A stretch of 64,000 nt of DNA from Faecousia sp. (GTDB lineage: Bacteria > Bacillota > Clostridia > Oscillospirales > Oscillospiraceae), in assembly GCA_045602725.1 (NCBI GenBank), contig JAZSCE010000076.1, positions 22,919 through 86,918 of the forward strand, read 5' to 3'. The notes below the pieces were generated by a model. The model had not been told where the DNA came from. It saw nothing but the letters and a program-made list of their open reading frames with translations, and did no database searches. The position numbers and the translations under genes were made by a program. This document shows, piece by piece, positions 15,959-41,576 of the stretch (its first letter is position 1; each line of letters opens with the position of its first letter).

Positions 15959-17092
15959 ATGGATCGAAAATTCAGGCTGTCCACAGCCTTGGATATTGAC
16001 GATGTGCTGATGGAGTGTGTACCCTATGCCATCCGTCTTGCCAATGAAAGATATAAGTTTGATCCACCGCTGAGCATTTATGAGGTGGATCGCTGGGGCA
16101 AGCTGGGCACCCGTGCGGATGTAATCTTTGAGATCTTTCAGGATCCGGAGTTTTACCGCAACCAGCCTGTCTTCAAGGGTGCCCGCCAGTTTGTGAAAAA
16201 GCTATCGCAGCTTACAGAGGTTTTTGTTTCCACTTCTGTCTGGCCTCAGTTTATGAGCATCCGGGCAGAGCGCATTGCCCAGGAATTTCCCGAGATCCCG
16301 GCTGACCATATTTATATGGGCTCACGCAAGGATAAGATCGATGTGGATATCCTATTTGATGACGGTATGCACAATGTGATGCGCTCCAATGCAGCCTATC
16401 CCATTTTGATGCGGCGGCCCTGGAATCAGGATGCCACCGGTGTTCTGGCGGTCAATACCTATGATGAGTTTCTGAAGCTGGTCGAGATCATCTCCGACAG
16501 TTACAGCACCAAGACCCAGGGCTTCAATCCGGACGAGCCGGGCATCGTGGTTTTGGTCGGCCCCTCTGGCAGCGGAAAGACCGATATTGCCAAGCGCTTG
16601 GTAAGACGGGGGAAGCGATTTGAAAAGCTGATCAGCTACACCACCGATGCGACGGTCGGTCTGCACGGCGGCGAGTGGTATCATTATATTTCCCTGGAAG
16701 CCTTCCGGGATATGCAGGAAAACGGTGAGCTGTTTGAGTCCACGATGTACGCCGGCCATTGCTACGGCTCCTGCAAAAAGGATGTTGAGAATATCCTGGC
16801 ATCCGGCAAGCACGTGCTGACGGTTATGGATATCTGCGGCGCAATGTCGCTGAAGACCAATTTCCCCAATGTGGCTACTATCTATATCAAGCGTGACAAG
16901 CGGGACCTGGTTGCCGCTGTGCTTGAGAAGAACTTAAGCAACAAGGAAAAGACCAGCCGTATCCTTGCTTTGGATTCAGAGACCCAAAACGCAGCGATCT
17001 GTGACTATGTGGTTCCCGGTGATGATTTTGATCAGGCAGCCAAGGAAATCCTAAAGGGCCTGTTCAAAACAGGAAGCCGGAAGAAGGGGTAA
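15959..17092 (+). CDS. Fusion: HAD 5'(3')-deoxyribonucleotidase (NT5C-like) + guanylate kinase-like domain
   Basis: N-term ALDIDDVL, VSTS, K, DILFDDG, RPWN (NT5C pattern); C-term LVGPSGSGKT P-loop, LISYTT, YHYIS, YAGHCYG. Confidence 0.8.
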   Translation: MDRKFRLSTALDIDDVLMECVPYAIRLANERYKFDPPLSIYEVDRWGKLGTRADVIFEIFQDPEFYRNQPVFKGARQFVKKLSQLTEVFVSTSVWPQFMSIRAERIAQEFPEIPADHIYMGSRKDKIDVDILFDDGMHNVMRSNAAYPILMRRPWNQDATGVLAVNTYDEFLKLVEIISDSYSTKTQGFNPDEPGIVVLVGPSGSGKTDIAKRLVRRGKRFEKLISYTTDATVGLHGGEWYHYISLEAFRDMQENGELFESTMYAGHCYGSCKKDVENILASGKHVLTVMDICGAMSLKTNFPNVATIYIKRDKRDLVAAVLEKNLSNKEKTSRILALDSETQNAAICDYVVPGDDFDQAAKEILKGLFKTGSRKKG

Positions 17093-17095
17093 GCG

Positions 17096-17938
17096 ATGTA
17101 TTGTGATCTGCATACCCATTCCACAGCATCCGACGGAACCTGCACGCCGGCTGAGATTATCCGCCTGGCTGAGCAGCGGAAGCTGTCTGCGGTGGTACTC
17201 AGCGACCACAATACGGTGGCAGGCCTTGCGGCATTTTTGGCAGCAGGGGAGAATAGCCCGGTAGAGGCTGTGCCGGCGGTGGAGTTTTCCACCCAATACG
17301 GTGAAACAGAATTGCATATTTTGGGCATGTTTATCCGTACGGAAAAATATGCGGTGGTCACGAATCTGCTGGAAGAGCTGCTCCGCGCAAAAGAGCAGAG
17401 CAATATTGCCCTGGTGCAGAAGCTGGCCGGCGTTGGCATCACGCTGGATTATGAAAAGATCAAAGCGCAATCCGGCAGCTATGTGAACCGTGCGGTGATC
17501 GGCGCGGAAATGGTGCGGCTTGGCTATGTGGCTTCCGTGCCGGAAGCGTTTGATCAATACCTTTCCGAGAAGAGGGGCTTATATGTGCCGCCCCGGCGCT
17601 TGGATGCTTATGATGCGATCCGGTTTATCAAGTCCATCGGTGCGGTGGCGGTGCTGGCGCATCCGTTGCTGAATCTGGATGAATCCGGTTTGCGCATATT
17701 CCTGCCGGAAGCAATCGAAGCCGGCCTGGATGCAATGGAAGTTTACTATTCTAAATATAGCCCGGAGAAGACTGCGCTGGCGGAAAGTATTGCGAAGGAG
17801 TTTCACCTGCTGCCCAGTGGCGGCAGTGACTTCCACGGTGACAACAAGCCCGGCATCGACCTGGGCGTGGGCAGGGGAGACCTGAAGATCCCCGATTGCT
17901 GGCTGGAAGCACTGCGCAGCCGTGCGAATAATTTATAA
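17096..17938 (+). CDS. PHP domain hydrolase (YciV/TrpH-like)
   Basis: DLHTHSTASDG, SDHNT, VEFS, HILG, VLAHP, SGGSDFHG. Confidence 0.9.
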   Translation: MYCDLHTHSTASDGTCTPAEIIRLAEQRKLSAVVLSDHNTVAGLAAFLAAGENSPVEAVPAVEFSTQYGETELHILGMFIRTEKYAVVTNLLEELLRAKEQSNIALVQKLAGVGITLDYEKIKAQSGSYVNRAVIGAEMVRLGYVASVPEAFDQYLSEKRGLYVPPRRLDAYDAIRFIKSIGAVAVLAHPLLNLDESGLRIFLPEAIEAGLDAMEVYYSKYSPEKTALAESIAKEFHLLPSGGSDFHGDNKPGIDLGVGRGDLKIPDCWLEALRSRANNL

Positions 17939-17955
17939 TGTATAGGAAGTAAAAA

Positions 17956-18723
17956 ATGGAGTTGCAAAGAGCAAGTGGTTGGAAAAGAATAGCTGCCTGG
18001 GTTTTGGACCTGATGCTGCTGTGTGTGATTGCCGTTGGTGTGGCTTATGCTCTCTCCGCTGTGCTGGAGTATGATGTTCACCAGCAGACGGTACAAACGG
18101 CGTATGAAAAATACGCGCAGCAATATGACATTGATCTGGATATGGATCAGGCAACCTATGACGCAATGTCTGCTGAAGAACAGGCGGAGTACGACGCAAA
18201 AGCTGAGCAGATCGAAAAGGCGCTGAATGAAGATGATGAAGTCAAGTATGCCTATAATATGGTTGTCAGCTATTCGGTGCTGATTATTACAATGAGCATC
18301 CTGCTCGCAACGGTATTGCTGGAGTTTGTGCTGCCGCTGATCCTGAAAAATGGTCAGACCGTTGGCAAGAAGTGCTTTTCCCTGGCAGTTGTCCGTGTCG
18401 ATGGCGTCAAGGTCAATGCGGTGCAGATGTTTACCAGAGCGGTGCTGGGTAAGTTTGCCGTTGAGACAATGATCCCGGTGTATGTGGTTATTATGCTGTA
18501 CTGGGGATTGATGGGCTTTGGCGGACTGATCGTGCTGCTGCTCCTGCTTGTGATCCAAATTGCTTGCATTGCAGTTAACCGGGACCGGGCTACAATTCAT
18601 GATCGTTTTGCAGGCACCGTGGTTGTGGATATGGCCAGCCAAAAGATTTTTGAAAGTACAGAGGAACTGATCGCTTATACCAATCGCATTCATGCTGAGC
18701 AGGTAAAGCGACAGGACTCTTAA
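17956..18723 (+). CDS. RDD family membrane protein
   Basis: ASGWKRIAAWVLD, GQTVGK, IHDRFAGTVVV. Confidence 0.88.
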   Translation: MELQRASGWKRIAAWVLDLMLLCVIAVGVAYALSAVLEYDVHQQTVQTAYEKYAQQYDIDLDMDQATYDAMSAEEQAEYDAKAEQIEKALNEDDEVKYAYNMVVSYSVLIITMSILLATVLLEFVLPLILKNGQTVGKKCFSLAVVRVDGVKVNAVQMFTRAVLGKFAVETMIPVYVVIMLYWGLMGFGGLIVLLLLLVIQIACIAVNRDRATIHDRFAGTVVVDMASQKIFESTEELIAYTNRIHAEQVKRQDS

Positions 18724-18764
18724 AATAATCAATAATAAAATAAACATATTTGGAAGGGGTTCAT

Positions 18765-19868
18765 ATGAAAGTTACATTGCAGAATCTTACTAAAATCTTC
18801 CCCAGCCGGGACAAGAAGGCCGGCAAAGAAGTCGTTGCTGTCAGCGACTTTACCTTCGACATTCCCGACGGCAAGCTGATCGGTCTTTTGGGACCGTCCG
18901 GTTGCGGCAAGTCCACCACGCTGTATATGATCAGCGGCTTGCAGAAGCCTACTAGCGGCAGAATTTTCTTCGGTGATGATGATGTAACGGAGCTGTCCAC
19001 CGAAAACCGCGGTATCGGCCTGGTGTTCCAGAACTACGCACTGTATCCCCACATGACCGTCAAGCAGAACATCCTGTTCCCCCTGCAGAACCTGAAGGGC
19101 AAGGACAAGATGACCAAGGATCAAATGCTGGAGCGTGCCTATGAGGCAGCCAAGCTGGTTCAGATCGATGAGCTGATGGATCGTAAGCCCAGCGAGCTGT
19201 CCGGCGGTCAGCAGCAGCGTGTTGCTATCGCCCGTGCGCTGGTTAAGATGCCCCGAGTTCTGCTGTTGGACGAGCCCCTTTCCAACCTGGATGCCCGCCT
19301 GAGACTGCAGACCCGTGAGGAGATCCGCCGTATTCAGAAGGAAACCGGCATCACCACCGTTTTCGTTACCCACGACCAGGAAGAGGCAATGAGCATCTCT
19401 GATATGATCGTGGTTATGAAGCTGGGCGTTGTCCAGCAGATCGGCAAGCCTCAGGAAGTTTACGACAACCCCACCAATCTGTTCGTTGCCAAGTTCCTGG
19501 GCACACCTCCCATTAACGTATTCAGCGGCCTGATCAAGGACGGCAAGCTGTATATTGGTGAAGAAGCTGTGCTGGATGTAGCCGGTGTTGCTGATCAGGC
19601 TGTTACCGTCGGCATCCGTCCCGAAGGCTTCGAGCTGGCAGAAGATGGCAAGCTGGCCTGCAATCTGAGCAATGTAGAGGTTATGGGCCGTGATGTCAGC
19701 GTGGTTTCTACCCACAACGCATCTGCCAACCCCGTGATCCGTTCCATTATCAATGCCGATAACAAGATCGACCTGAGCCAAAGCGTTGTCCGTTTCAATT
19801 TGAAGCCTCACAAGGTCTTTATCTTCAATGCAGAGACCGAGGAGCGCCTGTACGTTGAGGTGAAGTAA
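18765..19868 (+). CDS. ABC transporter ATP-binding protein (MalK/MsmK-type)
   Basis: GPSGCGKST, VFQNYALYPHMTV, LSGGQQQRVA, LLLDEPLSNLD, VTHDQEEA. Confidence 0.96.
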   Translation: MKVTLQNLTKIFPSRDKKAGKEVVAVSDFTFDIPDGKLIGLLGPSGCGKSTTLYMISGLQKPTSGRIFFGDDDVTELSTENRGIGLVFQNYALYPHMTVKQNILFPLQNLKGKDKMTKDQMLERAYEAAKLVQIDELMDRKPSELSGGQQQRVAIARALVKMPRVLLLDEPLSNLDARLRLQTREEIRRIQKETGITTVFVTHDQEEAMSISDMIVVMKLGVVQQIGKPQEVYDNPTNLFVAKFLGTPPINVFSGLIKDGKLYIGEEAVLDVAGVADQAVTVGIRPEGFELAEDGKLACNLSNVEVMGRDVSVVSTHNASANPVIRSIINADNKIDLSQSVVRFNLKPHKVFIFNAETEERLYVEVK

Positions 19869-19869
19869 T

Positions 19870-20808
19870 ATGGTAGATAACATGCAACAATGGAAGGCGT
19901 GGCTGTACCTGTCGCCGGCGATTGTACTTTTGCTGGTGTTTACCGTATGGCCCATCTTCAACACTGTGCGTATGGCTTTCTTGGAGAATTACTCCGGTCT
20001 GAAGGCTGCGGGCGGTATGGTTTTCGAGTTTGGTATCGGAAACTTCCAAAAGGTCATTGAGTATAAGCGCATTATTGAGTGCTTGACCAATACGGTGCTG
20101 CTTTGCGTTCTGACTGTGCCGATCTCCACGCTCCTTGCGCTGCTGATCGCTGTTACACTCAATTCCATCAAGCCCCTGCAGAAGCTGCTGCAGACCATCT
20201 TCTTCCTGCCCTATGTTACCAACTCCATCGCCATCGGCATGGTGTTCGCAGCAATGTTTAACATCATTGGCCTCCGGCCCGATGGTGTGACCGCAGATAC
20301 CTGGGGTATTGTCAACAATGTAATCCAGTTCTTTGGTGGAAAGCCGATCAACTGGATCAACCAAGGCTCCCAATACTGGGCCAACATGACCGTTATGGTT
20401 GTGTACATCGTGTGGAATGCGCTGCCCTTCAAGATCCTGGTTTTGCTGGGCGGTTTGCAGAGCATCAACAAGCAGTACTATGATGCTGCCAAGGTTGATG
20501 GCACTCCCCGCAAGAGAGTGTTCACCCGCATCACCGTGCCGCTGCTGTCCCCGATGCTGGCCTATGTTATCATCACCGGCTTTATCGGCGGCTTCAAGGA
20601 ATACTCCAGCATCGTCGGTATCTTCGGCGAAACGATGGGACCTCCGGATGCAGAGCGCAGACTCAATACGATGGTCGGCTTCATTTACGATGCCTTGAGC
20701 AGCAACAGCCAGGGCCGCGCAAGTGCCGCCGCACTGATCCTCTTTGCAATTATTCTTGCTGTTACATTGTTTAACAACTATGTCATCAAGAAGCACACAC
20801 ATTATTAA
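19870..20808 (+). CDS. ABC transporter permease 1 (CUT1 family)
   Basis: 6 TM; EAA-like loop LQSINKQYYDAAKVDG...RITVPLL. Confidence 0.95.
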   Translation: MVDNMQQWKAWLYLSPAIVLLLVFTVWPIFNTVRMAFLENYSGLKAAGGMVFEFGIGNFQKVIEYKRIIECLTNTVLLCVLTVPISTLLALLIAVTLNSIKPLQKLLQTIFFLPYVTNSIAIGMVFAAMFNIIGLRPDGVTADTWGIVNNVIQFFGGKPINWINQGSQYWANMTVMVVYIVWNALPFKILVLLGGLQSINKQYYDAAKVDGTPRKRVFTRITVPLLSPMLAYVIITGFIGGFKEYSSIVGIFGETMGPPDAERRLNTMVGFIYDALSSNSQGRASAAALILFAIILAVTLFNNYVIKKHTHY

Positions 20809-20822
20809 TAGGAGGGCTGTTT

Positions 20823-21707
20823 ATGGATAAGAATGTTATGCATGCGAAAGACCTGCAGCAGACCTCCTTCAACCAGAAGATCATCAAGTTTTGTGTAAAG
20901 TTCTTTACGTATCTGTTCCTTTGCACAATGGCATTGATCGTGCTGTTCCCGTTCTATTGGATGATTATTTCCTCCCTTAAGAGCCTGGCGGAATATCGCC
21001 TGAATGTGCCGACCTTCTGGCCAAAGAAAATTTTGTTCAGCAACTATTCTGAGGCATTTACCACCGCAAACCTGGGCAGCCTATTCATCAATACGATGAT
21101 CGTCGGCGTGTCCTCCACGCTGCTGTCGCTGATCATTACGGTGCTGTCCGCATTTGCCTTTGCCCGCCTGGAGTTCAAGGGCAGAGATACGATGTTCACG
21201 CTGCTGCTGGCTACTATGATGATTCCCGGTGAGCTGTTTACCATCACCAACTACACCACTGTTACCCAGCTGAACTGGATGAACACCTATACGGTCCTGA
21301 TCGTCCCGTTCCTGGTCAGCGTGTTCTATATCTTCCTGCTGCGTCAGAACTTCCTGCAGATCCCGAACGAGCTTTACCTGGCTGCAAAGGTGGACGGAAC
21401 TTCTGATCTGAAGTATTTGTGGAAGGTTATGGTGCCCCTGGCATTGCCCACATTGATCTCCATCACCATCCTGAAGATGATGGGCGCCTGGAACTCCTAT
21501 ATGTGGCCCCGCCTGGTTGCCAACGATGAGGCGCACCGCCTGATCACCAATGGTTTGCGTAATGCATTTACCACCACAACCGGTGATGTAAACTACCCCG
21601 TGCAGATGGCTGCAGTTGCTCTGGTTTCCGCGCCGCTGTTCCTGGTATTCATCTTCCTGCGTAAGTACATTATGGCTGGCGTCAGCCGTAGTGGTATCAA
21701 GGGCTAA
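20823..21707 (+). CDS. ABC transporter permease 2 (CUT1 family)
   Basis: FPFYWMIISSLK, AFAFARLEFKGR, IPNELYLAAKVDG, WNSYMWP. Confidence 0.95.
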   Translation: MDKNVMHAKDLQQTSFNQKIIKFCVKFFTYLFLCTMALIVLFPFYWMIISSLKSLAEYRLNVPTFWPKKILFSNYSEAFTTANLGSLFINTMIVGVSSTLLSLIITVLSAFAFARLEFKGRDTMFTLLLATMMIPGELFTITNYTTVTQLNWMNTYTVLIVPFLVSVFYIFLLRQNFLQIPNELYLAAKVDGTSDLKYLWKVMVPLALPTLISITILKMMGAWNSYMWPRLVANDEAHRLITNGLRNAFTTTTGDVNYPVQMAAVALVSAPLFLVFIFLRKYIMAGVSRSGIKG

Positions 21708-21824
21708 AAGCTTCCGCGTAGAAATTTTCTACACATAAAATTTAAGTCTATATACAGACCCGCGCATACGCAACGGCCTGATAAAGAAAAACAAAATTTT
21801 ATATATAGAAAGGAACGAACAAAC

Positions 21825-23249
21825 ATGAAAAGAATCCTGGCACTGCTTCTGCTGGTTGTGATGGTCATTGGCCTCGTAGCTTGCAGCAGCACAAAAACTC
21901 CCACCGGCACCCCCAATGCAGGCGCAATCAACTTTACTGTACCTGAAGGCGGTTACGATGGCAGTGCGGTAGAAATCAAGTTCTATCACACTATGGGCGC
22001 TAATCTGCGTGAAGTTCTGGATGCATACATTGTTGAGTTCAACAAGCTGTATCCCAACATCACCATCATCAGCGAGCAGGTTGGCGGCTACGATGATGTG
22101 CGTGAGCAGATCAGCACCGAGATCCCTGCCGGCAATCAGCCCCACATCGCATACTGCTACCCTGACCACGTTGCTCTGTACAACCTGGCTGGCGCAGTTA
22201 CCACCCTGGACGGCCTGATCGACAGCAAGATCGAGATTACCCGCAATGATGGCACCAAGGAAATCCTGGGTCTGACCGACGAGCAGAAGGCCGACTTCAT
22301 CGAAGGTTACTACAACGAAGGCAAGGAATTCGGCGACGGCTTGATGTACACCATGCCCCTGAGTAAGTCCACCGAGGTTCTGTACTACAACAAGACCTTC
22401 TTTGATGCAAACAACCTGACCGTTCCCACCACTTGGGACGAGCTGGAAGCTCTGTGCGCACAGATCAAGGCAATTGATCCTAAGTGCATTCCTCTGGGCT
22501 ACGACTCCGAGGCCAACTGGTTCATCACCATGTGTGAGCAGTATGGCTCTGACTACACCAGTGCCAGCGGCGACCACTACCTGTTTGACAATGAGCAGAA
22601 CCATGCATTCGTTAAGAAGTTCAACGAGTGGTATAACAAGGGCTACCTGACCACTCAGACTCTGTACGGTGCTTACACCTCCGGCCTGTTCACTGCTCAC
22701 GGCGAGGATACCACCAAGAGCTATATGTCCATCGGTTCTTCCGCAGGTGCAACTCACCAGCGTCCCGATATGGTTGACGGCGCTTATCCCTTCGAGGTTG
22801 GTATCGCTACCATTCCTCAGGTCAGCGCTGACAACAAGAAGGTCATTTCTCAGGGCCCCAGCCTCTGCATCTTCCAGAAGAGCAATCCTCAGGAAGTCAT
22901 TGCTTCCTGGCTGTTTGTTAAGTTCCTGACCACCAATGTTTCCTTCCAGGCCGAGTTCGGTATGGCTTCCGGCTACGTTCCTGTCCTGAAGTCCGTTGGT
23001 GAGAACCCTGTTTACAAGGACTACCTGGCCAGCGCTGACGGCGGTGCTTACATCGCTGCTCTGTCCGCTAAGGTTTGTCTGGAGCAGGAGAGCGCTTACT
23101 ACACCTCTCCCGCATTTAACGGTTCTTCCACCGCTCGTGACCAGGTTGGCGCTCTGATGGCTAAGTGCCTGACGCTGACCGGTGATGTGGATTCTCAGAT
23201 TGCCGCTGCATTCCAGGATGCAATCGACGAATGTGAATACCACACCTAA
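21825..23249 (+). CDS. ABC transporter substrate-binding lipoprotein
   Basis: Lipobox LVAC; IKFYHTM, EFNKLYPNI, LYYNKTFF, VPTTWDEL, SWLFVKFLT. Confidence 0.93.
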   Translation: MKRILALLLLVVMVIGLVACSSTKTPTGTPNAGAINFTVPEGGYDGSAVEIKFYHTMGANLREVLDAYIVEFNKLYPNITIISEQVGGYDDVREQISTEIPAGNQPHIAYCYPDHVALYNLAGAVTTLDGLIDSKIEITRNDGTKEILGLTDEQKADFIEGYYNEGKEFGDGLMYTMPLSKSTEVLYYNKTFFDANNLTVPTTWDELEALCAQIKAIDPKCIPLGYDSEANWFITMCEQYGSDYTSASGDHYLFDNEQNHAFVKKFNEWYNKGYLTTQTLYGAYTSGLFTAHGEDTTKSYMSIGSSAGATHQRPDMVDGAYPFEVGIATIPQVSADNKKVISQGPSLCIFQKSNPQEVIASWLFVKFLTTNVSFQAEFGMASGYVPVLKSVGENPVYKDYLASADGGAYIAALSAKVCLEQESAYYTSPAFNGSSTARDQVGALMAKCLTLTGDVDSQIAAAFQDAIDECEYHT

Positions 23250-23255
23250 TTCTGA

Positions 23256-24614: not shown

Positions 24615-24631
24615 TATTAAAGGAGTAAGCT

Positions 24632-32266: not shown

Positions 32267-32280
32267 TCGCAAAACCTAAT

Positions 32281-32316
32281 AAAAAATCCCAAGGGTGAAA
32301 ACCCTTGGGATTTTTT
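32281..32316. terminator. Bidirectional intrinsic terminator
   Basis: AAAAAATCCCAAGGGT-GAAA-ACCCTTGGGATTTTTT between convergent operons. Confidence 0.9.
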
Positions 32317-32317
32317 A

Positions 32318-33040
32318 TTAACCTTTTAAGTGTTTTATTTTTTCGTATACAGCCGGGTCTGCCCGGTCAATGGTCAGGGGCATAATGGAAATATAGCCGC
32401 TCATTACGCAATCACTGTCTAATGTCAGGTCATTCTGATTTTTGTACACACATTTGCCGTGGGGCATATACATATCGTTTCCCTCGTGAATGAAATCATC
32501 GGAGTAGAAATGACCGCCCTGGCGGGTGATACGAATGCCCTTGGCATCGGGCACAACATTGACATTATACACATCGCACAGCTCCATCAGCTTGTGCTTG
32601 CAGAAGAATTCCAAAACCTGATCCAGCGGCTCGGTGGCACGATCATAAAACTCAGGTCCGGTGGAGATTGCTACAGCCTTCAGACCCAGTGAAACTGCCT
32701 CAAATACAGCGCCGGCTGTGCCGGAGTACATAATGTCACAGCCCATATTGAAGCCCCGGTTGATACCGGAGATCACAAGATCAAACTGCATTTTCATACC
32801 CAGCACGGCGTAACGGATGCAGTCGGCAGGAGAGGAGTCCACCGTGTAGGCCGTCAGCCCCGGCTCCAGCTCCACTTGCTTGACTTCGAAGGGCTTGTGC
32901 AGCTCGATGCTTTGGCTCTTGCCACTTTGTTCATATTTTGGGACGACAACGGTGACCTCTCCCAGTTTTTGGCACCACTTTACCAGCGGTATCAGCTGGG
33001 GAGCGCTGATACTATCGTCGTTTACAACCAGTATTCTCAT
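32318..33040 (-). CDS. surE: 5'/3'-nucleotidase SurE
   Basis: MRILVVNDD, EQSGKS, SPADC, VISGINRGFN, YSGTAGAVFEA; ATGA overlap with the upstream gene. Confidence 0.93.
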   Translation of the reverse strand: MRILVVNDDSISAPQLIPLVKWCQKLGEVTVVVPKYEQSGKSQSIELHKPFEVKQVELEPGLTAYTVDSSPADCIRYAVLGMKMQFDLVISGINRGFNMGCDIMYSGTAGAVFEAVSLGLKAVAISTGPEFYDRATEPLDQVLEFFCKHKLMELCDVYNVNVVPDAKGIRITRQGGHFYSDDFIHEGNDMYMPHGKCVYKNQNDLTLDSDCVMSGYISIMPLTIDRADPAVYEKIKHLKG

Positions 33041-34023
33041 AACCAATCCTCGTGCGTTTCCTTGTATTCCTTGACCAGTGCGTCGGTTTCACGGATCAGC
33101 ATATTCATCTCGGCTTTGCTGTGTACTGTGGCGCCGCTGGCACAGGCGTGACCGCCGCCATTGTACTTTTCAGCGATGGAATTGATGTGAACGAAGCGGG
33201 AGCGCAGACGGACCCGGATGGCGCCGTCGGCATTGCCGGTATCAATAAATACGATCCAGCTGATGCAGCCACGAATCTTATCCATTGTGTTGACGCAGGC
33301 GCTGGCCTCTTCCATGGTCAAGCCGAATTTCTCCTGCATTTCCTTATCCACATACAGATACGCAACACCATGCTCGGTGACCTGCATGTGCTCGTAAATA
33401 TAGGCTTTGAACTTGTAGTAGGAGAAGTCCTCCAAATATAGCTGGGCGAAGAGCATATCCGTATTGATGCCGGCATCCAGCAGGGTTGCTGCGGCACGCA
33501 GCGTATCGCCGTTGACACCCGCGTACTTGAAACGGCCGGAATCCGTCACCATACCGGTGTACAGATAGGTCGCGGCCTCGCTGGTCAGCACCAGCTCATC
33601 GCTGAAGGTTTGATAAAAGTCTGCCACCAGCTCGCAGCAGGAGGAGCGCTCTTCCTCAACCCACACGATGTCGCCATAGCTTTCAACGGGAATGTGATGG
33701 TCAATCTTGATCAGTTCCTTACAGCGCTTATAGTTCTTGTTGGAAATCCGGGCTTCCGATGCGGTGTCCAGCACGATGCCCAAAGCATCGTCATAGAGCG
33801 TCTCATCCACAGCCGCATCCTCGGGGCCCAGGAATTTCAAATACTCGGTGTTGTCATCGTCAATCAGGTAGATTTCCTTTTCCGGAAAGCTGGCGATAAG
33901 GATTGCCTTAAGGCCTTTTGTAGCGCCAACGCAATCGCCATCGTTGCGCACATGCCGGAACAGAAAAATCCGGTCATATTCCTTGATTTTCTCTAAAATT
34001 TCTCTTTTTATCTCAAAATTCAT
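33037..34023 (-). CDS. nrnA: DHH/DHHA1 oligoribonuclease / pAp phosphatase (NrnA-like), copy B
   Basis: HVRNDGD, IDHH, TDSGRF, RVRLRS, GGGHACASG. Confidence 0.88.
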   Translation of the reverse strand: MNFEIKREILEKIKEYDRIFLFRHVRNDGDCVGATKGLKAILIASFPEKEIYLIDDDNTEYLKFLGPEDAAVDETLYDDALGIVLDTASEARISNKNYKRCKELIKIDHHIPVESYGDIVWVEEERSSCCELVADFYQTFSDELVLTSEAATYLYTGMVTDSGRFKYAGVNGDTLRAAATLLDAGINTDMLFAQLYLEDFSYYKFKAYIYEHMQVTEHGVAYLYVDKEMQEKFGLTMEEASACVNTMDKIRGCISWIVFIDTGNADGAIRVRLRSRFVHINSIAEKYNGGGHACASGATVHSKAEMNMLIRETDALVKEYKETHEDWL

Positions 34024-34961
34024 TTGCTTTCTCCAATCATAGCGTCCAGGTCAGCCAGCATTGCCATAGCGGTGGCTTTGTCTGCAACGGTTGCGCCGCT
34101 GGCCTTGGCGTGACCGCCGCCGCCGTACTTGACAGCAATGGGGTTGATATTGTACTTGCTGGAGCGAAGCTCGCACAGTACGCCCTTTTCGGTTTCCGTA
34201 AAGTTGACCCAAATATCTACACCCTTGGTGTCGGACATAGTGCCCACCATACCCCGCGATACGGTAAAGGTATCCACATTCAGCGCTGCCAGCTCTTCCC
34301 GTGTGGTGTAGATGTAGGCAACATTATTTTCGGTGAAGTTGATCTTCAGTATGAACTTTGCCTTCAGCAGCTTGGAGGAGAAATCATCGGCGTATAGCGT
34401 GCGGTACAGTTCGTTGGTATCAATGGGGTGCTCCATCAGCTTGGATGCCAGCCGGAAGGTGCGGGAATTGGTGCTGTCATAGCGGAAGCGGCCGGAATCG
34501 GTGATCATACCGGTGAACAGCGCTTTGGATGCCTGCAGATTCAGCTTCAGATCGCATTGGATCGCAAATTCCGTGATCAGACCGCAGCAGCTTTCAAAAC
34601 TGGTATCGATGATTTCCAAATCTGCGATTTCTTCGCAGAAAATGTGGTGATCAAAGCGGATGGTCTTGGCTGCCAATGCGTAACGCTCATCGTTGATCAT
34701 AGATATAGAGCCGCAGTCCAGGATGATCGCCAGTGCGCCTTCATAGGTGCTGTCGGGGATCTCATCCATTTGGCTGCCTTCGATAAAGCCGTAAAATCCG
34801 GGATTATCGCCAACCACATACACCTGCTTAGCGGGGAAGTTCTCCTGAATAATCTGCTTCATACCTACCTGGCTGCCAATAGCATCGCCATCGGGCCGAC
34901 CGTGACGGTGGATAATGATGGTGTCAAATTCTTCAATTGTTTTTAGAATTTCTTGAAACAT
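34020..34961 (-). CDS. nrnA: DHH/DHHA1 oligoribonuclease / pAp phosphatase (NrnA-like), copy A
   Basis: HGRPDGDAIGS, FDHH, TDSGRF, ELRS, GGGHAKASG; RBS GAGGT. Confidence 0.9.
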   Translation of the reverse strand: MFQEILKTIEEFDTIIIHRHGRPDGDAIGSQVGMKQIIQENFPAKQVYVVGDNPGFYGFIEGSQMDEIPDSTYEGALAIILDCGSISMINDERYALAAKTIRFDHHIFCEEIADLEIIDTSFESCCGLITEFAIQCDLKLNLQASKALFTGMITDSGRFRYDSTNSRTFRLASKLMEHPIDTNELYRTLYADDFSSKLLKAKFILKINFTENNVAYIYTTREELAALNVDTFTVSRGMVGTMSDTKGVDIWVNFTETEKGVLCELRSSKYNINPIAVKYGGGGHAKASGATVADKATAMAMLADLDAMIGESK

Positions 34962-35059
34962 CGTAAACCTCACTTGTAAACGGCATCAAATTATCGTATA
35001 ATAAATCATAACATAAAACGACCGCTTACGCAATGTAAATATGATGAAAAACAGGTGAT

Positions 35060-35911
35060 TTGTTGGAAAACGAACATATTTTGCTGGTTGACGGCAGCAA
35101 TCTGCTGTTTCAGATGTTTTACGGTATGCCGGCACGGATCATTGGAAGGCAGGGGAAGCCCATCCAGGGCACGCTGGGCTTTGTGGGTGCGCTGCTGAAG
35201 ATGGTAAGAAAATTGCAGCCCACCCATTTGGCAGTGCTGTTTGACGGCGAAACGAAGAATCCAAGAGGGGATTTGGATGAAGGCTATAAAGCAAATCGGG
35301 AAGATCTGAGCTTGCTTCCTGAGGAAGAGACGCCATTTTCTCAATTGCCGGACGTGTATGCCGCGCTGGACTATTTGGGCATCTGCCACCGGGAAACCTT
35401 CGCGTGCGAAACAGACGATTGGATGGCATCCTATGCTCTGGGTTTGGGCAGGGAATACCGAATGACGCTGATGTCCCAGGACAGCGATTTCTTCCAGCTG
35501 ATTACAGACAGGGTATCTGTTCTGCGCTACCGGGGTGACAATTCCGTTGTGTGCGACTGCGCCTATATCCGGGAAAAGCTGGGCATTGAGCCGTGGCAAT
35601 ATGCAGATTTCAAAAGCTTGACCGGCGATGCATCTGACAATATCCGGGGTGCAGATAAGGTGGGGCCCAAAACAGCGGCTGCGCTGATGAATCAGTTTGG
35701 CTCACTGCAGAATCTTTTGGAAAATGCGGAGGATATTGCAAAACCCTCTATTCGGGCATCTATTCAGGCGAACAGAGAACGATTGCTGCGCAATCAAATG
35801 CTGATTCGCCTGGAACAGAAATATCCAGTGCCCTTTTCTATGGAGGAGATGGCCTATACATACGACGGACAGACCTCAACCCAAGTGCTGACGGCAATTG
35901 GCGTAAAATAA
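35060..35911 (+). CDS. Stand-alone 5'-3' exonuclease / flap endonuclease (PolA N-terminal-like)
   Basis: LLVDGSNLLF, LFDG, YKANR, ETDD, SQDSDFFQL, LTGDASDNIRG..KVGPKTA; no polymerase domain. Confidence 0.9.
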   Translation: MLENEHILLVDGSNLLFQMFYGMPARIIGRQGKPIQGTLGFVGALLKMVRKLQPTHLAVLFDGETKNPRGDLDEGYKANREDLSLLPEEETPFSQLPDVYAALDYLGICHRETFACETDDWMASYALGLGREYRMTLMSQDSDFFQLITDRVSVLRYRGDNSVVCDCAYIREKLGIEPWQYADFKSLTGDASDNIRGADKVGPKTAAALMNQFGSLQNLLENAEDIAKPSIRASIQANRERLLRNQMLIRLEQKYPVPFSMEEMAYTYDGQTSTQVLTAIGVK

Positions 35912-35938
35912 AACGGGAAGCAATTGCTTCCCGTTTTT
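35910..35938. terminator. Bidirectional terminator
   Basis: AAAACGGGAAGC-AATT-GCTTCCCGTTTT. Confidence 0.8.
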
Positions 35939-35941
35939 GCT

Positions 35942-36688
35942 TTATTTATTTTCCATTGCTACGGCCACATCCAGCGCAACTTTCATCATTGCGGTAAAGG
36001 CTGTCTGCCGCTCCTCAGAGGTGGTTTCCACGCCTTTGAGCACGTGGTCGGATATGGTGCAGATGCACAGCGCACGCTTGCCGTACCGGGCTGCGTTCAT
36101 ATATAGCGCGGCGGCTTCCATCTCCAGCGCCATAACGCCCATCTTCTTCAGGCCATATACGCTGTCCAAGCCCTCAGGCACGCCTGCGTGGTCACCATAG
36201 AACACATCGGAGGAATTGACATTACCCACGTGATAAGTGGCACCGGCGGCTTTGCAGGCCTCCACAGCGGCGCTGAGCAGCTCATAGGAGGCAATAGGAG
36301 CGAAAGTGCCAGGCAGATGGAACTGTGCGGCAAAATTGGAATCGGTGCAAGCGCCCTGAGCCAGGACCAACTCATACAGATTGATATGCTCCTGAATAGA
36401 GCCGGCGGAGCCGACACGGATGATATTTTCCACGCCGTAGCCGTTATAGAGTTCGTGAGAGTAAATGCCGATAGCGGGCATACCCATACCGGAAGCCATT
36501 ACGGAAACCTTAACGCCCTTGTAGTAGCCGGTATAGCCGTGGACACCACGGACATTGTTTACCAAAACGGGATTCTCCAGGAAGTTTTCAGCAATAAACT
36601 TGGAGCGCAGGGGATCGCCGGGCATCAGAACGGTCTTGCCGAAATCGCCGGGCTTGGCGCTGATGTGGGGGGTAGGTGTGTGTAACAT
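35942..36688 (-). CDS. deoD: Purine nucleoside phosphorylase (hexameric DeoD type)
   Basis: PTPHI, VLMPGDPLR, SGMGMP, IIRVGSAG, LEMEAA, TISDH; RBS AGGAGG. Confidence 0.96.
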   Translation of the reverse strand: MLHTPTPHISAKPGDFGKTVLMPGDPLRSKFIAENFLENPVLVNNVRGVHGYTGYYKGVKVSVMASGMGMPAIGIYSHELYNGYGVENIIRVGSAGSIQEHINLYELVLAQGACTDSNFAAQFHLPGTFAPIASYELLSAAVEACKAAGATYHVGNVNSSDVFYGDHAGVPEGLDSVYGLKKMGVMALEMEAAALYMNAARYGKRALCICTISDHVLKGVETTSEERQTAFTAMMKVALDVAVAMENK

Positions 36689-36704
36689 AGTATTGTCCTC
36701 CTGA

Positions 36705-38237
36705 TTAGTAGTTTTCAAAGCCGCCATCTTTGGCGAACTGCGCCAGCAGATCCCGGGCATAAACCTCGGCATCATAGCGGTCGATTTCTGTCAGTTTATT
36801 GGGGCCGTAGAGGGAAGAATAGCTGTCTACAATGACATAGTAGGTTTCGTCATATTCAATATTCTGCTCCAAGTACCGGCCGTATTCACCGTAGCTGATA
36901 AAATAGCGGTCATTTGTGGTGTTGTAGAAGCGATCCAGCAGATCTTCGCCCTTAATGGAGCAAAGCACCAATTGATTATCAAAGGGGAAGAGGGAATAGA
37001 GCATTTTGTAGGTAACTTCTCCGGCGGCTAAATAGCCGGGATCCCGGATGGAGATGAAGCCGCCACCCAGCGCAATGTCATATTCATCGCCCCAGATCTC
37101 TTCGCCGGCTTTGTAGTAAAGGTCCGCTACCAACTGCTGCATATACTTGTTGTTGCGGTTGTATTTGTTTGTGCCCAGGATCTCGTTGCCTTTGTCAACC
37201 TTGTCGGCGTACTTATCCAGCAGCTCGCCAACGATGGGGTGATCCTCTTCGTGGGCGTAGGTACGGGGCTCAACCAACTCCGCAGTCTGGACAGAGGCTT
37301 TGCCTGTAGCAATGTTGATGGCGACCTCTGCGTGGGTGATGCCTTCGTTATCGCCGCCGCCCTGCAGGTGATATACGCCGCGGCTGTCGGTCAGCACATA
37401 TTTGCGGTGGGTATGACCCTCGAAAACAAGATCCACATAGCCATCCGACAGCGAGATATCATAGTAGGATTTCAGCATACCGTCGCTGACAGTTCCGGAT
37501 TTGTTGGAGCCAAGACCATCGTGGAGCAGGTAAACGATGAAATCAGCACCGGCTTCGTGAAGCATATCGGATTCTCTCTTGACCAGTTGGGTCAGTTCCG
37601 AGCCGGTCTTAAAATAAACATCCGTTACCTTATCAGAAGCAATGGAGGAGTAGCAATCGCCCACAGCGCCGATAATACCGATCTGCAGCTTGCCGAGATC
37701 TACCATCGTGGAGCTGTTGCAGTAGCTGACCTGCTGATTGGTCTCACGGTCATAAATATTTATGGCCAGGAAGGGAAATTCGGCGTGCTTTGCGTTCTCT
37801 TCGATGGGAGCCTCGCCCCAATCGTATTCGTGGTTGCCGATGGCCATTGCGGCAAAGCCCATTTCGTTCATCCAATCCACCATAATGCGGCCGTGGGTCA
37901 GGTTGGATTCTGAGGCGCCCTGCCACATATCGCCGGCATTGAGGAAGATGGCATGATCATCCGACTTTTTTGCGTTTTCCAGATAGGTACTCAGTTCGTC
38001 AAGACCGAGATGGGTATCTGCATCTGCCAGCTTGCCGTGGATGTCATTGAGCGAATAGAAATCCACCATAACAAGCAGAAATTCGCTGCAAACATCACAG
38101 AAGCCATCATTGGCTGCGTCAGTATGACCATCCGTGCAGGTGGGAGGTGCGGTTTCAGCAGGCGCCTGGGCAGGTGAGCAACCCACAAGCAGCAGACAAA
38201 GCACCAAGAGCAGGCATAGTTTCTTCAGCATAGACAA
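36705..38237 (-). CDS. 5'-nucleotidase / bifunctional metallophosphoesterase lipoprotein (UshA/CpdB-like)
   Basis: Lipobox LVGC; NDIHG, AGDMWQG, GNHEYD, LLHDG, EGHTH; C-term FPFDN. Confidence 0.9.
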   Translation of the reverse strand: MSMLKKLCLLLVLCLLLVGCSPAQAPAETAPPTCTDGHTDAANDGFCDVCSEFLLVMVDFYSLNDIHGKLADADTHLGLDELSTYLENAKKSDDHAIFLNAGDMWQGASESNLTHGRIMVDWMNEMGFAAMAIGNHEYDWGEAPIEENAKHAEFPFLAINIYDRETNQQVSYCNSSTMVDLGKLQIGIIGAVGDCYSSIASDKVTDVYFKTGSELTQLVKRESDMLHEAGADFIVYLLHDGLGSNKSGTVSDGMLKSYYDISLSDGYVDLVFEGHTHRKYVLTDSRGVYHLQGGGDNEGITHAEVAINIATGKASVQTAELVEPRTYAHEEDHPIVGELLDKYADKVDKGNEILGTNKYNRNNKYMQQLVADLYYKAGEEIWGDEYDIALGGGFISIRDPGYLAAGEVTYKMLYSLFPFDNQLVLCSIKGEDLLDRFYNTTNDRYFISYGEYGRYLEQNIEYDETYYVIVDSYSSLYGPNKLTEIDRYDAEVYARDLLAQFAKDGGFENY

Positions 38238-38273
38238 TGTTATCTACTCCATTTTCTGTATATCTTTGAAAAA

Positions 38274-38315
38274 TGCAGCCTTTCGTGTTTGGTACAGAAA
38301 CACGGAAAAGCTGCA
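38274..38315 (-). promoter_or_regulatory. Terminator-like hairpin in the 5' leader of the 5'-nucleotidase-deoD operon
   Basis: Minus strand TGCAGCTTTTCCGTGTTT-CTGTACC-AAACACGAAAGGCTGCA then TTTTT, just after TTGATT-N16-TAAAAT. Confidence 0.5.
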
Positions 38316-38407
38316 CATAACTTATTTTACAGCATATTGGTGAAAAATCAAGAGCTTTTGCTAAAAAAAGAGCGGAGTATTGCACTCCGCTCCTGTGGTG
38401 ATGGAAT

Positions 38408-39319
38408 TCAGGAAAGTTCCGCATAGCCGATTTGGGGATAGGGGGTAGGATTGCATTCGGTCTTGCTGTCAAATACGCCACCGCCGGTAACGTTGCCGAA
38501 GGTTTCACCCCAGCCTCCGTAGTAGTTCAGGTACTCCGTGAAATCGTTGTAATGATTGTGGGTATAGAATACGAAAATCTCGTGGGGCTCATAGGTTCCG
38601 TTGCCGTTAATGTCCTGCTTGGTATACACCAAACGGGCTGCCCCACGGACGATGGAACTGCCGTTGTTGTAAGGACGGGGCTTATAGCCGGGGGTTACGG
38701 TGCCGGTGGTGCCGATGTCCATTTCAAAATAGCGGAAGCCCTGACCATTGCCGGGTAATTCCGGCTCATAGGGGTACTTTTTGGGGTTATTCTTATACCA
38801 GGAGTGATTCAGGCGCAGGTACTGTCCCCAAATGTTGCCAACGGGCTTGGCACTTTTCTTGCTGGTATGGTTTGCCGGCAGCTCTTCACTGCTGCCAAAG
38901 GCATACATATAGGCCGCAACCTCTTCCAGCGTGATATAGGCGCCGCCTTTATAGATGCGCATTACCTCATTGCCGTATGCATCGGTGACGATATAGGTAT
39001 TGCCGTTATCTTCGTAGCGTGTGGCGGTATTGCGGATATAGCGGCCATCCTCGGTGGGCTGATAGTCAGCTCTGGTGAAATCCTGATCAGGAACCTCTAA
39101 AGAGCCGGAGAGGAAGCCGTGCTTGGAGCGATACTGCGCATCCTCATAGCTGGTGGCGGGGGAGTAATTGCTGTAAAATTCCTCGGCGGTCATACCCACA
39201 TAGGGATCACTGGTGGGTACGGCAGGTCGTGTGGGTTGGGTTTCAGTTGGTGCAGTTGGACTTGCACAGCTGCTCAGCAGAAACAGTACAAGCAAAATTG
39301 CAGATAAAACGCGTTTCAT
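38408..39319 (-). CDS. Barnase/RNase Sa-like ribonuclease lipoprotein
   Basis: Lipobox LSSC; EEVAAY, LPANH..K, YFEMDI, RGAARLVY, FYTHNHYNDF match the barnase E73/R83/R87/H102 pattern. Confidence 0.75.
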   Translation of the reverse strand: MKRVLSAILLVLFLLSSCASPTAPTETQPTRPAVPTSDPYVGMTAEEFYSNYSPATSYEDAQYRSKHGFLSGSLEVPDQDFTRADYQPTEDGRYIRNTATRYEDNGNTYIVTDAYGNEVMRIYKGGAYITLEEVAAYMYAFGSSEELPANHTSKKSAKPVGNIWGQYLRLNHSWYKNNPKKYPYEPELPGNGQGFRYFEMDIGTTGTVTPGYKPRPYNNGSSIVRGAARLVYTKQDINGNGTYEPHEIFVFYTHNHYNDFTEYLNYYGGWGETFGNVTGGGVFDSKTECNPTPYPQIGYAELS

Positions 39320-40228: not shown

Positions 40229-40238
40229 ACAACTCACC

Positions 40239-40868: not shown

Positions 40869-40872
40869 ATTC

Positions 40873-41349: not shown

Positions 41350-41499
41350 AATTTCACCGCCCTTTCAACTATTAGATTGGAAAACTTGCAAAACGTTACA
41401 TCAATTATATCACATTTTCTGAAAATTTCAAAAGAGTGTATTAACGGAACATATTTCTGAGAAATTAGCAAAAAAACCGTCTCAAAAGAGACGGTTTTT

Positions 41500-41576
41500 T
41501 GGCACGCCCGGCGCGATTCGAACGCGCGACCTTCCGCTTAGGAGGCGGATGCTCTATCCAGCTGAGCTACGGGCGC
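41500..41576 (-). tRNA. tRNA-Arg(CCT)
   Basis: GCGCCCGTAGCTCAGCTGGATAGAGC...TCCGC-CTCCTAA-GCGGA...TTCGAAT...GCCA; terminator at 41470-41500. Confidence 0.97.

Follow-up and report, generated by a model that had tools for sequence, protein, structure and literature searches.

The window, the whole 64-kb stretch of DNA that was analysed, carries sixteen adjoining open reading frames between positions 15959 and 39319, with intergenic gaps of at most 170 nt (Table 1). Nine genes on the plus strand (15959-32266) are followed by three on the minus strand (SurE and two DHH proteins), one on the plus strand (a 5'-3' exonuclease) and three on the minus strand (DeoD, a nucleotidase and an RNase-like protein). 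Three terminator-like hairpins fit five transcription units, which agrees with the original prediction of sixteen adjoining genes in about five units. Taken whole, the promoter and terminator scans did not yield more sites than shuffled sequence, and no Rfam riboswitch scored above threshold at the locus. Upstream of the RDD gene in homologs a promoter-like element was spotted, by eye only. RNA-library contigs from relatives span the region, indicating presence only and not expression level or induction. Curated NCBIfam cut-offs were passed by SurE and DeoD only, out of the 16 genes, and lipoboxes were found in the binding protein, the SNase, the nucleotidase and the RNase-like protein.

Table 1. 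Genes and terminator-like hairpins of the locus (positions in the window; loci are the closest 80 of 522).
Feature	Position	Strand	Basis
NT5C (deoxyribo)nucleotidase fused to divergent guanylate-kinase-like domain; accessory	15959..17092	+	PF06941 E 1.9e-14, PF00625 E 2.8e-22
PHP phosphoesterase, RNase AM/YciV type; accessory	17096..17938	+	PF02811; NF047791, NF041577 E ~1e-42, below cut-offs
RDD-family membrane protein; core	17956..18723	+	PF06271
CUT1-type ABC ATPase (likely start 18765); core	18750..19868	+	Pfam and NCBIfam
ABC permease 1; core	19870..20808	+	PF00528; 73/80 loci
ABC permease 2; core	20823..21707	+	PF00528; 76/80 loci
Substrate-binding lipoprotein (SBP_bac_8), predicted dinucleotide or short-oligonucleotide binder; core	21825..23249	+	Best PDB match U3G-binding protein; site residues conserved
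SNase (thermonuclease) lipoprotein, C-terminal OB-like part; core	23256..24614	+	PF00565 E 3.3e-12; 80/80 loci
2544-aa surface protein with C-terminal endonuclease I domain; slot core	24632..32266	+	Pfam Endonuclease_1, residues 2332-2522
Terminator-like hairpin, bidirectional, between convergent operons	32278..32319	.	18-bp inverted repeat read from sequence
SurE 5'/3'-nucleotidase; core	32318..33046	-	TIGR00087 above cut-off
NrnA-like DHH/DHHA1 phosphodiesterase 1; core	33037..34023	-	Pfam, NCBIfam; catalytic motif residues kept 43/43
NrnA-like DHH/DHHA1 phosphodiesterase 2; core	34020..34973	-	Pfam, NCBIfam; 36% identical to NrnA-like 1
Stand-alone 5'-3' exonuclease, Pol I N-terminal type; accessory	35060..35911	+	PF02739 and PF01367; 9/80 loci
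Terminator-like hairpin, bidirectional	35910..35937	.	Terminator scan
DeoD purine nucleoside phosphorylase; accessory	35942..36775	-	PNP_UDP_1; TIGR00107 above cut-off; 1/80 loci
Surface nucleotidase lipoprotein, 5'- or 3'-/2',3'-cyclic specificity; accessory	36705..38237	-	PF00149 and PF02872
Terminator-like hairpin 3' of RNase-like gene	38368..38394	-	Terminator scan
Barnase-like RNase lipoprotein; accessory	38408..39319	-	PF00545 23.5 bits (cut-off 24)

Most of the protein families originally proposed were recovered by Pfam. These include three surface nuclease families (SNase, Endonuclease_1 and, just under its cut-off, Ribonuclease), a complete CUT1-type ABC importer (ATPase, two permeases and SBP_bac_8), and the NrnA pair, PHP enzyme, SurE, 5'-3' exonuclease and DeoD, whose likely start is 36688, preceded by a ribosome site. 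In the SNase, residues D73, D75, T76, R94, E102, D140 and R145 are invariant in 79/79 homologs, and position 99 is N in 72 and D in 7 of them. The RNase-like protein had no PDB match by sequence; its E199, R225, R229 and H256, candidates for the catalytic Glu, two Arg and His of barnase in order, fall in conserved columns (45 homologs). The protein proposed as a surface 5'-nucleotidase is indeed a Metallophos/5_nucleotid_C lipoprotein, but its 5' specificity was not borne out, as its best NCBIfam model is a multifunctional 2',3'-cyclic phosphodiesterase/3'-/5'-nucleotidase, matched below cut-off. Similarly, both domains of the proposed NT5C-guanylate kinase fusion were found, but the kinase half is divergent (101.6 bits against TIGR03263, cut-off 160.45), and the arginines of TTRxPR, presumably the GMP-site arginine motif of guanylate kinases, are lacking both here and in 15 of the 16 relatives listed. 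On both counts it departs from canonical guanylate kinases. A separate canonical gmk is present in 4/4 relatives, and a second copy of the fusion lies on another contig (C64).

The 2544-aa surface protein consists of an N-terminal anchor (a hydrophobic stretch without a lipobox), two Ig-like, nine OB-type and four beta-rich repeats, Pro/Thr linkers and the endonuclease I domain. The OB-fold call for its repeats came from Atlas (0.95-0.96).

Conservation was counted in the closest 80 of 522 confirmed loci, with SurE and DHH genes counted in the 46, and RDD in the 67, that have enough flank. The core, which recurs in these 80 loci, Lachnospiraceae and Sphaerochaetaceae included, is made up of RDD, the ABC ATPase, two permeases, the binding protein, SNase and an OB-repeat protein, facing SurE and two NrnA. 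Of the 67 loci with 4 kb or more of upstream sequence, 66 have RDD, a gene left unnamed in the original prediction, immediately 5' of the ATPase. The ATPase was matched in 71/80, the remaining nine running off contig edges. An OB-slot homolog stands 3' of SNase in 76/80 (244-2125 aa when whole), and an endonuclease I domain was found in 0/45 of the OB-slot homologs scanned; the slot is core, and the large size and nuclease domain of the window's protein are not. Where 9.5 kb or more of downstream sequence was available (46 loci), 32 contain SurE and 38 a DHH gene. The synteny search proposed earlier thus confirmed the core, but the accessories proved optional and endonuclease I is not the rule. 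About ten of the sixteen genes form the conserved unit, and the rest are optional accessories that track the core from genome to genome: the PHP gene occurs in 17 and the NT5C fusion in 8 of the closest 80 loci, and in 22 the NrnA operon also includes a dGTPase-like HD gene. A close binding protein was found in 10 of 60 relatives, and these ten include 5/5 of the RNase-like carriers, 6/7 of the nucleotidase carriers and 5/8 of the NT5C-fusion carriers, which are kin and not independent. In ten distant loci taken from a draw of 400 genomes of the phylum, NrnA directly follows the permeases in seven, and an SNase lipoprotein lies 3' of the binding protein in one. Clustering therefore exceeds chance, since 80 loci from other species share the core order and further nucleic-acid enzymes have been recruited to it. 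Genes for capture, cutting, import and finishing are co-located in the window, so that the proposed likeness to a PUL holds for the functional set. PULs also feature a dedicated sensor or regulator within the locus, but neither was found by Pfam among the 16 genes.

The top PDB match of the binding protein is the U3G dinucleotide-binding protein of Thermus thermophilus (phmmer E 5e-20; next family 4.5e-10), reportedly described by Chandravanshi et al. in 2021 (PDB 7C0F series). This protein is the nearest solved relative by sequence (profile search 2e-28, vs 1e-21 for UgpB) and by Foldseek, where it fills ranks 1-21 among the matches listed, although identity is only ~21-23% in structural alignments. 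By VIA-align it comes second (Z 37.9, rmsd 3.5) to M. tuberculosis UgpB (Z 39.2, rmsd 2.3, 379 aligned), with a maltose binder at Z 37.1. As all three lie close, the fold alone cannot name the ligand. Eight residues were mutated in the 7C0x entries, and the entry titles suggest that they contact the ligand. Three are identical in the window (Y56, S127 and Q274, here Y89, S182 and Q343), four are similar and one, Y224, is ambiguous in the alignment and probably corresponds to Y284. The two proteins differ at F79, N81 and T240, which are Y112, D114 and S305 in the window, and at Y246, which is H311; Tyr is found there in 21/80 close and 73/133 distant homologs. Two Tyr and two Ser reportedly bind phosphate in UgpB, GPC- and U3G-binding proteins, and not in glucose binders (PMC12718374). 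The likely counterparts of these residues, Y89, S182, S306 and Y384, are kept in 79-80 of 80 homologs. Importers of this kind are usually labelled as sugar transporters; on the residues above, the cargo is likely to be short phosphorylated pieces, namely dinucleotides or short oligonucleotides.

Among the best 150 representatives, the binding protein was found fused to SNase (P0272, a cluster of five), to OB repeats (P0276, P0264) and to a beta-rich repeat (P0300). A homolog on a Thermus plasmid (25% identical) has surE directly 3' of it and an ExeM/NucH nuclease nearby. Weak matches to the P68 lipoprotein model NF045826 were seen in 37 of 50 binding proteins (best E 4e-12, far under the 200-bit cut-off). 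The ATPase groups with long mycoplasma ATPases (SH-aLRT 96 in a quick tree; a more careful one gave 87/84). Named Bacilli relatives are Alteracholeplasma palmae J233 (37% identity) and Mycoplasmatota WC44, and no named Izemoplasmatales was among the sequences retrieved. A sister clade at ~30% identity keeps most site residues.

We read the block as a likely nucleic-acid foraging system with an importer likely for dinucleotides or short oligonucleotides, and assign this a probability of about 0.68. Synteny, co-occurrence, fusions and the U3G likeness support the capture-cut-import-finish scheme first put forward, although for a unit of about ten genes. Against this reading, SNase and DHH matches are absent from 10/10 stretches fetched for the sister clade, which has a small OB-like lipoprotein only, NrnA is missing in 8/46 loci, and the RNase-like gene is often alone (in 45 of 60 loci no further gene of the block is seen; most of these contigs are short, but some measure 6.5-14 kb). 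Moreover, the surface nucleotidase would compete with the uptake of phosphorylated pieces. That enzyme suits a variant in which the polymer is fully degraded outside the cell and what enters through the importer is mononucleotides (3'- or 5'-NMP/dNMP) or nucleosides, with NrnA mainly clearing 3',5'-bisphosphates and the cell's own nano-RNA. Mononucleotides are substrates of SurE and NT5C, the 84%-complete genome yielded no nucleoside binding protein of the Bmp type, and the published models for mycoplasmas and Izemoplasmatales, as far as their locus descriptions go, propose uptake of nucleotides, nucleosides or bases. However, the conserved phosphate-binding residues disfavour nucleosides, the nucleotidase occurs in only 3/80 of the closest loci, and it is NrnA, not a nucleotidase, that follows the permeases in most distant loci. 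We regard this variant as rather unlikely, while giving it some weight.

Two further explanations appear far less probable. The importer's best NCBIfam models are UgpA/B/C/E, every one below cut-off, and with UgpB first by VIA-align and the Thermus plasmid homolog adjoining phosphonate genes, glycerophosphodiesters or sugar phosphates could be the cargo of a general phosphate-ester scavenger whose nucleases free phosphorus at the surface. Yet no glycerophosphodiesterase was found in the 16 genes or in the recurrent neighbour clusters scanned, the U3G protein ranks well above UgpB in sequence searches, and the binding protein occurs in fusions with SNase and with OB repeats; such cargo is very improbable. 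It is equally doubtful that the surface nucleases mainly help to remodel biofilm, evade host DNA traps or control transformation, with feeding secondary. Mycoplasma nucleases are reported to act in such ways (PMC9740415), the genome encodes ComEC, and ddb is related to a transformation system. Such roles would nevertheless leave the invariant link to the importer, two NrnA, SurE and the dGTPase-like gene unexplained; competence genes are absent among the 16 locus genes, and ComEC is also present in a genome without a close core (G007).

The concept of a foraging locus is already published for Izemoplasmatales, mycoplasma SNase-ABC operons and Bacteroidales ddb. An M. genitalium cluster had been named as the known relative; the larger and closest published case is that of the Ca. 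Izemoplasmatales 'DNA-degradation loci' (Wasmund et al., 2021, PMC8289736; zrk13, PMC8397711; zrk29, PMC10470597). In their published descriptions these loci hold secreted nucleases, further nucleases, phosphohydrolases and an ABC importer for which nucleosides or bases were proposed as cargo, and they were likened to PULs (PMC8289736). A giant protein that carries OB folds and ends in an endonuclease I domain was proposed to hold DNA at the cell, and the H. nucleasis zrk29 locus, with an extracellular ribonuclease, NrnA and ABC genes, is described as DNA/RNA-induced (PMC10470597). The window also clusters several secreted nucleases, an ABC importer and phosphohydrolases with a large OB-fold surface protein ending in endonuclease I. 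However, its host is an uncultured, gut-dwelling clostridium, Oscillospiraceae-like to judge by the nearest named loci, and the lamin-tail domain and phosphate ABC transporter of Izemoplasmatales have no match in the 16 genes (Pfam, E 0.01). Conversely, the text on those loci does not name RDD, SurE with tandem NrnA, a barnase-like lipoprotein or an NT5C fusion, all found in the window.

The mycoplasma P80/MslA-SNase-ABC 'nucleotide transporter' operon (MAG_5030-5070, MBOVPG45_0307-0311), for which import of nucleic-acid precursors was proposed, shares with the window a binding-protein-like lipoprotein with an SNase lipoprotein directly 3' of it, and a sugar-type (CUT1) ABC importer in the same cluster. 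Its ABC genes lie 3' of SNase, whereas those of the window lie 5' of the binding protein, and its descriptions include no OB-array protein, RDD or SurE, all three of which the window has. In the Bacteroidales gut locus ddbABCDEF, secreted nucleases and a transporter are combined with a predicted DNA-binding partner for DNA utilisation (PMC12478041; bioRxiv 2025.03.18.642099). Its TonB-dependent transporter (DdbC) is absent from the window's locus. Atlas pointed (0.90) to DUF5689, the domain of the partner DdbD, for the OB repeat of the window's surface protein, in which Pfam had no match to it; the domain scored above cut-off in 3/5 other core-bearing genomes, in frames sized like their OB-slot proteins.

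It was proposed earlier to check whether the genome lacks de novo purine and pyrimidine genes. It retains them: purH and pyrD are above cut-off, a pur cluster lies on contig C28 and a purF-like match was found below cut-off. This sets the host apart from mycoplasmas, which lack the pathway, and the system is therefore not needed for salvage. In favour of foraging, deoB and deoC are above cut-offs in 5/5 core-bearing genomes; against it, no Pdp was found in 5/5 genomes searched. From the genes and their families, conserved catalytic residues, gene order, co-occurrence and fusions, we infer the following activities, ligand and flux for a foraging system that imports short oligonucleotides. At the surface, the giant protein would tether DNA or RNA to the cell by its OB repeats, and its endonuclease I domain and the SNase and barnase-like lipoproteins would cut the nucleic acid into short fragments, most of them bearing 3'-phosphates. 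The binding protein would hold a dinucleotide or short oligomer by its phosphodiester for uptake by the CUT1 importer. Inside, the two NrnA, the PHP enzyme and the 5'-3' exonuclease would yield mononucleotides, from which SurE and NT5C would remove phosphate. DeoD, aided by enzymes encoded elsewhere (DeoB, DeoC and a Udp-like one), would then release base and (deoxy)ribose phosphate, which may provide the organism with carbon, energy and material for salvage.

The 16 consecutive genes at 15959-39319 most probably form a real and conserved nucleic-acid foraging locus, found here in an unusually full version; we place the probability of this broad reading, which draws on gene content and context, at about 0.88. 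The three hairpins are compatible with the five or so transcription units first proposed. The gene labels of the original prediction are backed by Pfam and NCBIfam, but the kinase half of the NT5C fusion, the specificity of the nucleotidase and the RNase call had to be qualified. The kinase half scores under the NCBIfam cut-off for guanylate kinase and lacks the arginines of the GMP site. The Pfam match of the RNase-like lipoprotein lies slightly below its cut-off, and its Glu199, Arg225, Arg229, and His256 fall in columns conserved among 45 homologs. A second NT5C-kinase fusion (G000:C64:3531-4640, 62% identity) is encoded elsewhere in the source genome, and no canonical guanylate kinase was found in this 1.43 Mb, 84% complete assembly.

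Organization of the locus in the window
Feature	Position	Strand	Basis
Nine-gene run: NT5C-kinase fusion, PHP, RDD, ATPase, two permeases, binding protein, SNase lipoprotein, 2544-aa protein		+	ORF reading
Binding protein (in the nine-gene run)	21825-23249	+	
2544-aa surface protein (in the nine-gene run)	24632-32266	+	
SurE and two DHH genes, convergent with the nine-gene run		-	ORF reading
5'-3' exonuclease		+	ORF reading
DeoD, surface nucleotidase, RNase-like lipoprotein		-	ORF reading
Hairpin	32278-32319		read from sequence
Hairpin	35910-35937		
Hairpin	38368-38394		

When species-representative genomes were searched with the binding protein, at least 522 stretches were confirmed among 600 read, and the best 80 (68-93% identity) were retained; core counts therefore refer to close relatives only. 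Among these best 80 of at least 522 loci, SNase is found in all 80 and an OB-repeat homolog in 76, followed by DHH (43), SurE (37), PHP (17), and the exonuclease (9). When contig ends are allowed for, RDD is present in 66 of the 67 loci with 4 kb of upstream sequence, and DHH and SurE in 38 and 32 of the 46 loci with 9.5 kb downstream. Hosts of the core in this set include Oscillospiraceae, Lachnospiraceae, other Clostridia, and Sphaerochaetaceae. The conserved co-occurrence proposed as a check was borne out for the core, whose order recurs in the best 80; the NT5C fusion is found in 8/80, the nucleotidase in 3/80, DeoD in 1/80, RNase in 1/80, and endonuclease I in 2/80. The same 80 loci also contain genes of other kinds: a dGTPase-like HD gene, absent from the window locus, heads the NrnA-NrnA-SurE operon in 22 (e.g., L028:17012-18232), and a non-specific endonuclease, a further nuclease family, is present in two. 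Individual loci vary in structure. One of the 80 has no intact SNase frame (L078). In genome G014 (L120) the binding protein and OB protein are without SNase between them, and in genome G029 (L114, G029:C52) both are tandemly duplicated around the SNase gene. In four loci (L031, L032, L041, and L066) VTC-domain, DUF4956, and histidine-kinase genes come after the OB protein.

Genes outside the core change position yet stay with it. Among 60 relatives, 10 encode a close binding protein, and these 10 include 5/5 RNase carriers, 6/7 nucleotidase carriers, and 5/8 carriers of the NT5C fusion; as kin are not independent, no statistic is attached to these counts. A sixth NT5C fusion (genome G028) adjoins a broken binding-protein gene, and two more are found in incomplete genomes without a close binding protein. 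The broken gene (L124, G028:C12:164-1489) has an internal stop and lies directly behind the fusion, which suggests a decaying locus. In metagenomes, 15 of 60 loci with the RNase-like gene carry other genes of the locus. In many of these the RNase is placed after the OB protein and before SurE, and a third gene order is seen in L126. The remaining 45 show no other locus genes; most lie on short contigs, but some on contigs of 6.5-14 kb.

The giant 2544-aa protein is hydrophobic at its N-terminus and carries endonuclease I as its C-terminal domain; it further contains Pro/Thr linkers and three kinds of repeat, of which two are Ig-like, nine OB-type, and four beta-rich. The repeat profiles were derived from the protein itself, and the OB call is based on Pfam PF01336 together with Atlas scores of 0.95-0.96. 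For the beta-rich repeat Atlas gave a weak ricin-B lead of low recognition. Homologs found after SNase span 244-2125 aa when whole. A scan of 45 out of about 77 revealed no endonuclease I, although the closest homologs are cut by contig ends; this argues that the slot is most often filled by a predicted non-catalytic binding protein.

The nature of the imported substrate was approached through the binding protein, for which an alignment-based model reached pLDDT 95 (36 for a single-sequence fold). By phmmer, profile, and Foldseek searches, its best PDB match is a Thermus thermophilus protein crystallized with the dinucleotide U3G, whereas VIA-align placed Mycobacterium tuberculosis UgpB first (Z 39.2 versus 37.9 for the U3G protein). 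Of eight residues mutated according to the U3G entry titles, three are identical in the binding protein, four similar, and one ambiguous. Apart from H311, which is Tyr in 21, each position is retained in 79-80 of the best 80 of at least 522 homologs. Seven of the positions, together with Y384, show 81-92% conservation across 133 distant representatives, against 47% for the median column. According to one study, two Tyr and two Ser bind phosphate in UgpB and in the proteins that bind GPC or U3G, but not in glucose binders (PMC12718374). From the U3G alignment, their counterparts here would be Y89, S182, S306, and Y384.

Gene context favors nucleic-acid pieces as the predicted cargo, on the following grounds. 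In 10 distant loci, obtained from a 400-genome draw across the phylum with six candidates scored per genome, NrnA directly follows the permeases in seven and SNase follows the binding protein in one. Fusions of binding-protein homologs also occur, with SNase (P0272), with OB repeats (P0276 and P0264), and with the beta-rich repeat (P0300). On T. thermophilus HB8 plasmid pVV8 (L199, 30091-42464) a homologous importer is followed by surE, with an ExeM/NucH nuclease nearby. In another record a homolog is followed by a 2',3'-cyclic phosphodiesterase. The plasmid importer also lies near phosphonate genes. The most likely mechanism would be uptake of di- or oligonucleotides, which we consider probable. 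Other members of the family differ in architecture: some homologs are borne on long stalks with leucine-rich or InlB-type repeats (P0255, P0275, and P0284), and in a distant clade (L187-L192 and L194) the importer directly precedes a single NrnA gene and the Y89 position is Thr or Val. A sister system (L101-L110, e.g., L106:5806-11067) consists of an ATPase, two permeases, a binding protein of about 30% identity, and an OB-like lipoprotein of about 260 aa, the sole gene type after the importer in 10/10 stretches. Neither nuclease nor NrnA was found in these 10 fetched stretches. Of 36 genomes of the genus, 22 carry it, as do four others; the full system accompanies it in only four. Such a system may scavenge pieces released by others or bind something else.

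Recent transfer of the locus into the source genome is not supported, because its GC and GC3 match those of the flanks and the two nearest loci have the same upstream neighbors. GC also matches that of the genome, and the closest named loci among the matches listed are from Oscillospiraceae and Faecousia MAGs. Beside the locus, 39524-41576 is of low GC (~0.40-0.43), encodes an ECF sigma factor, a zinc-finger anti-sigma factor, and a DUF5412-like protein, adjoins a tRNA (41503-41576), and looks like a separate insertion. Sphaerochaetaceae binding proteins are 72-77% identical and are placed among clostridial ones; as a single Bacillota clade was compatible with an AU test on 29 rows (p 0.128), a transfer may have run in either direction. 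Pfam revealed no regulator among the 16 genes, an Rfam search of the locus returned neither riboswitches nor other RNAs over threshold, and inspection by eye of the homologous sequences listed noticed no shared operator upstream of RDD. In four RNA-library runs from one animal-gut study, 7-10% of words were present. Their contigs span 30/30 bins of the locus and are mostly 85-95% alike, hence from relatives; they were not counted as evidence of expression.

The concept of such a locus is unsurprising, since multi-gene DNA-degradation loci are already in print. Izemoplasmatales loci are described that combine multiple secreted nucleases with phosphohydrolases, an ABC importer, and a large protein containing OB and endonuclease I domains, and the parallel to polysaccharide utilization loci is drawn (Wasmund et al., 2021; PMC8289736). 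Two other papers cover cultured strains and induction by DNA or RNA (PMC10470597; PMC8397711). A nuclease-linked ABC operon of mycoplasmas is likewise described, its cargo being a proposal in the text available (PMC3585158; PMC4045577; PMC9740415; PMC12838404). Mycoplasma ATPases cluster with that of the locus with moderate support, and the binding proteins match the P68 model weakly; common descent of the importers is therefore likely, as far as these sequence comparisons go. When mycoplasma loci were sought in the 400-genome phylum draw, no match exceeded the P68 cut-off. A binding protein of 37% identity is encoded by the cultured Alteracholeplasma palmae J233. The proven gut case is the Bacteroidales ddbABCDEF locus (bioRxiv 2025.03.18.642099; PMC12478041), whose transporter differs from that of the window locus. 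Strong DNA depletion in a 35-strain panel was limited to four species, three Bacteroides and one Sutterella, and DdbD belongs to the DUF5689 family (bioRxiv 2025.03.18.642099). DUF5689 scores over cut-off in 3/5 core-bearing genomes. In a search of mainly open-access literature, no published description of the locus in gut Clostridia was found.

Absence of de novo purine and pyrimidine genes, raised in the original prediction, was not found: purH, pyrD, and a pur cluster (gene names read from motifs) are present in the source genome, and purH and pyrD occur in 57 and 53 of 61 genomes. Nucleotide auxotrophy, and with it a need for salvage, is thereby ruled out as the driver. DeoB and DeoC exceed their cut-offs in 5/5 core-bearing genomes, where profile searches returned neither Pdp nor ribokinase over cut-off; a Udp-like gene adjoins deoC. 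Only one further CUT1-like permease pair was found in the incomplete source genome. The gain would likely lie in the pentose as a source of carbon and energy, phosphate and bases being additional benefits.

A wider reading, which we offer tentatively and hold at somewhat below even odds, is that a single unrecognized ABC family, annotated as sugar transporters, is common to gut Clostridia, Acholeplasma-like bacteria, and mycoplasmas and would import intact short oligonucleotides. Its substrate would be supplied by a modular surface scaffold of OB repeats, corresponding in Gram-positive bacteria to Bacteroidales DdbD, with NrnA nano-RNases as catabolic finishers. Because the binding protein is soluble, confidently modeled, and has named site residues, it lends itself to direct assay; the locus also makes testable the cargo of the mycoplasma importer, a proposal in the accessible literature. 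The identity of the gut bacteria that turn over nucleic acids from diet, host, and microbes is little known, and the locus, with at least 522 stretches confirmed in species-representative genomes, provides a marker for a clostridial route. If the wider reading is true, hundreds of uncultured gut species would be specialist DNA/RNA foragers.
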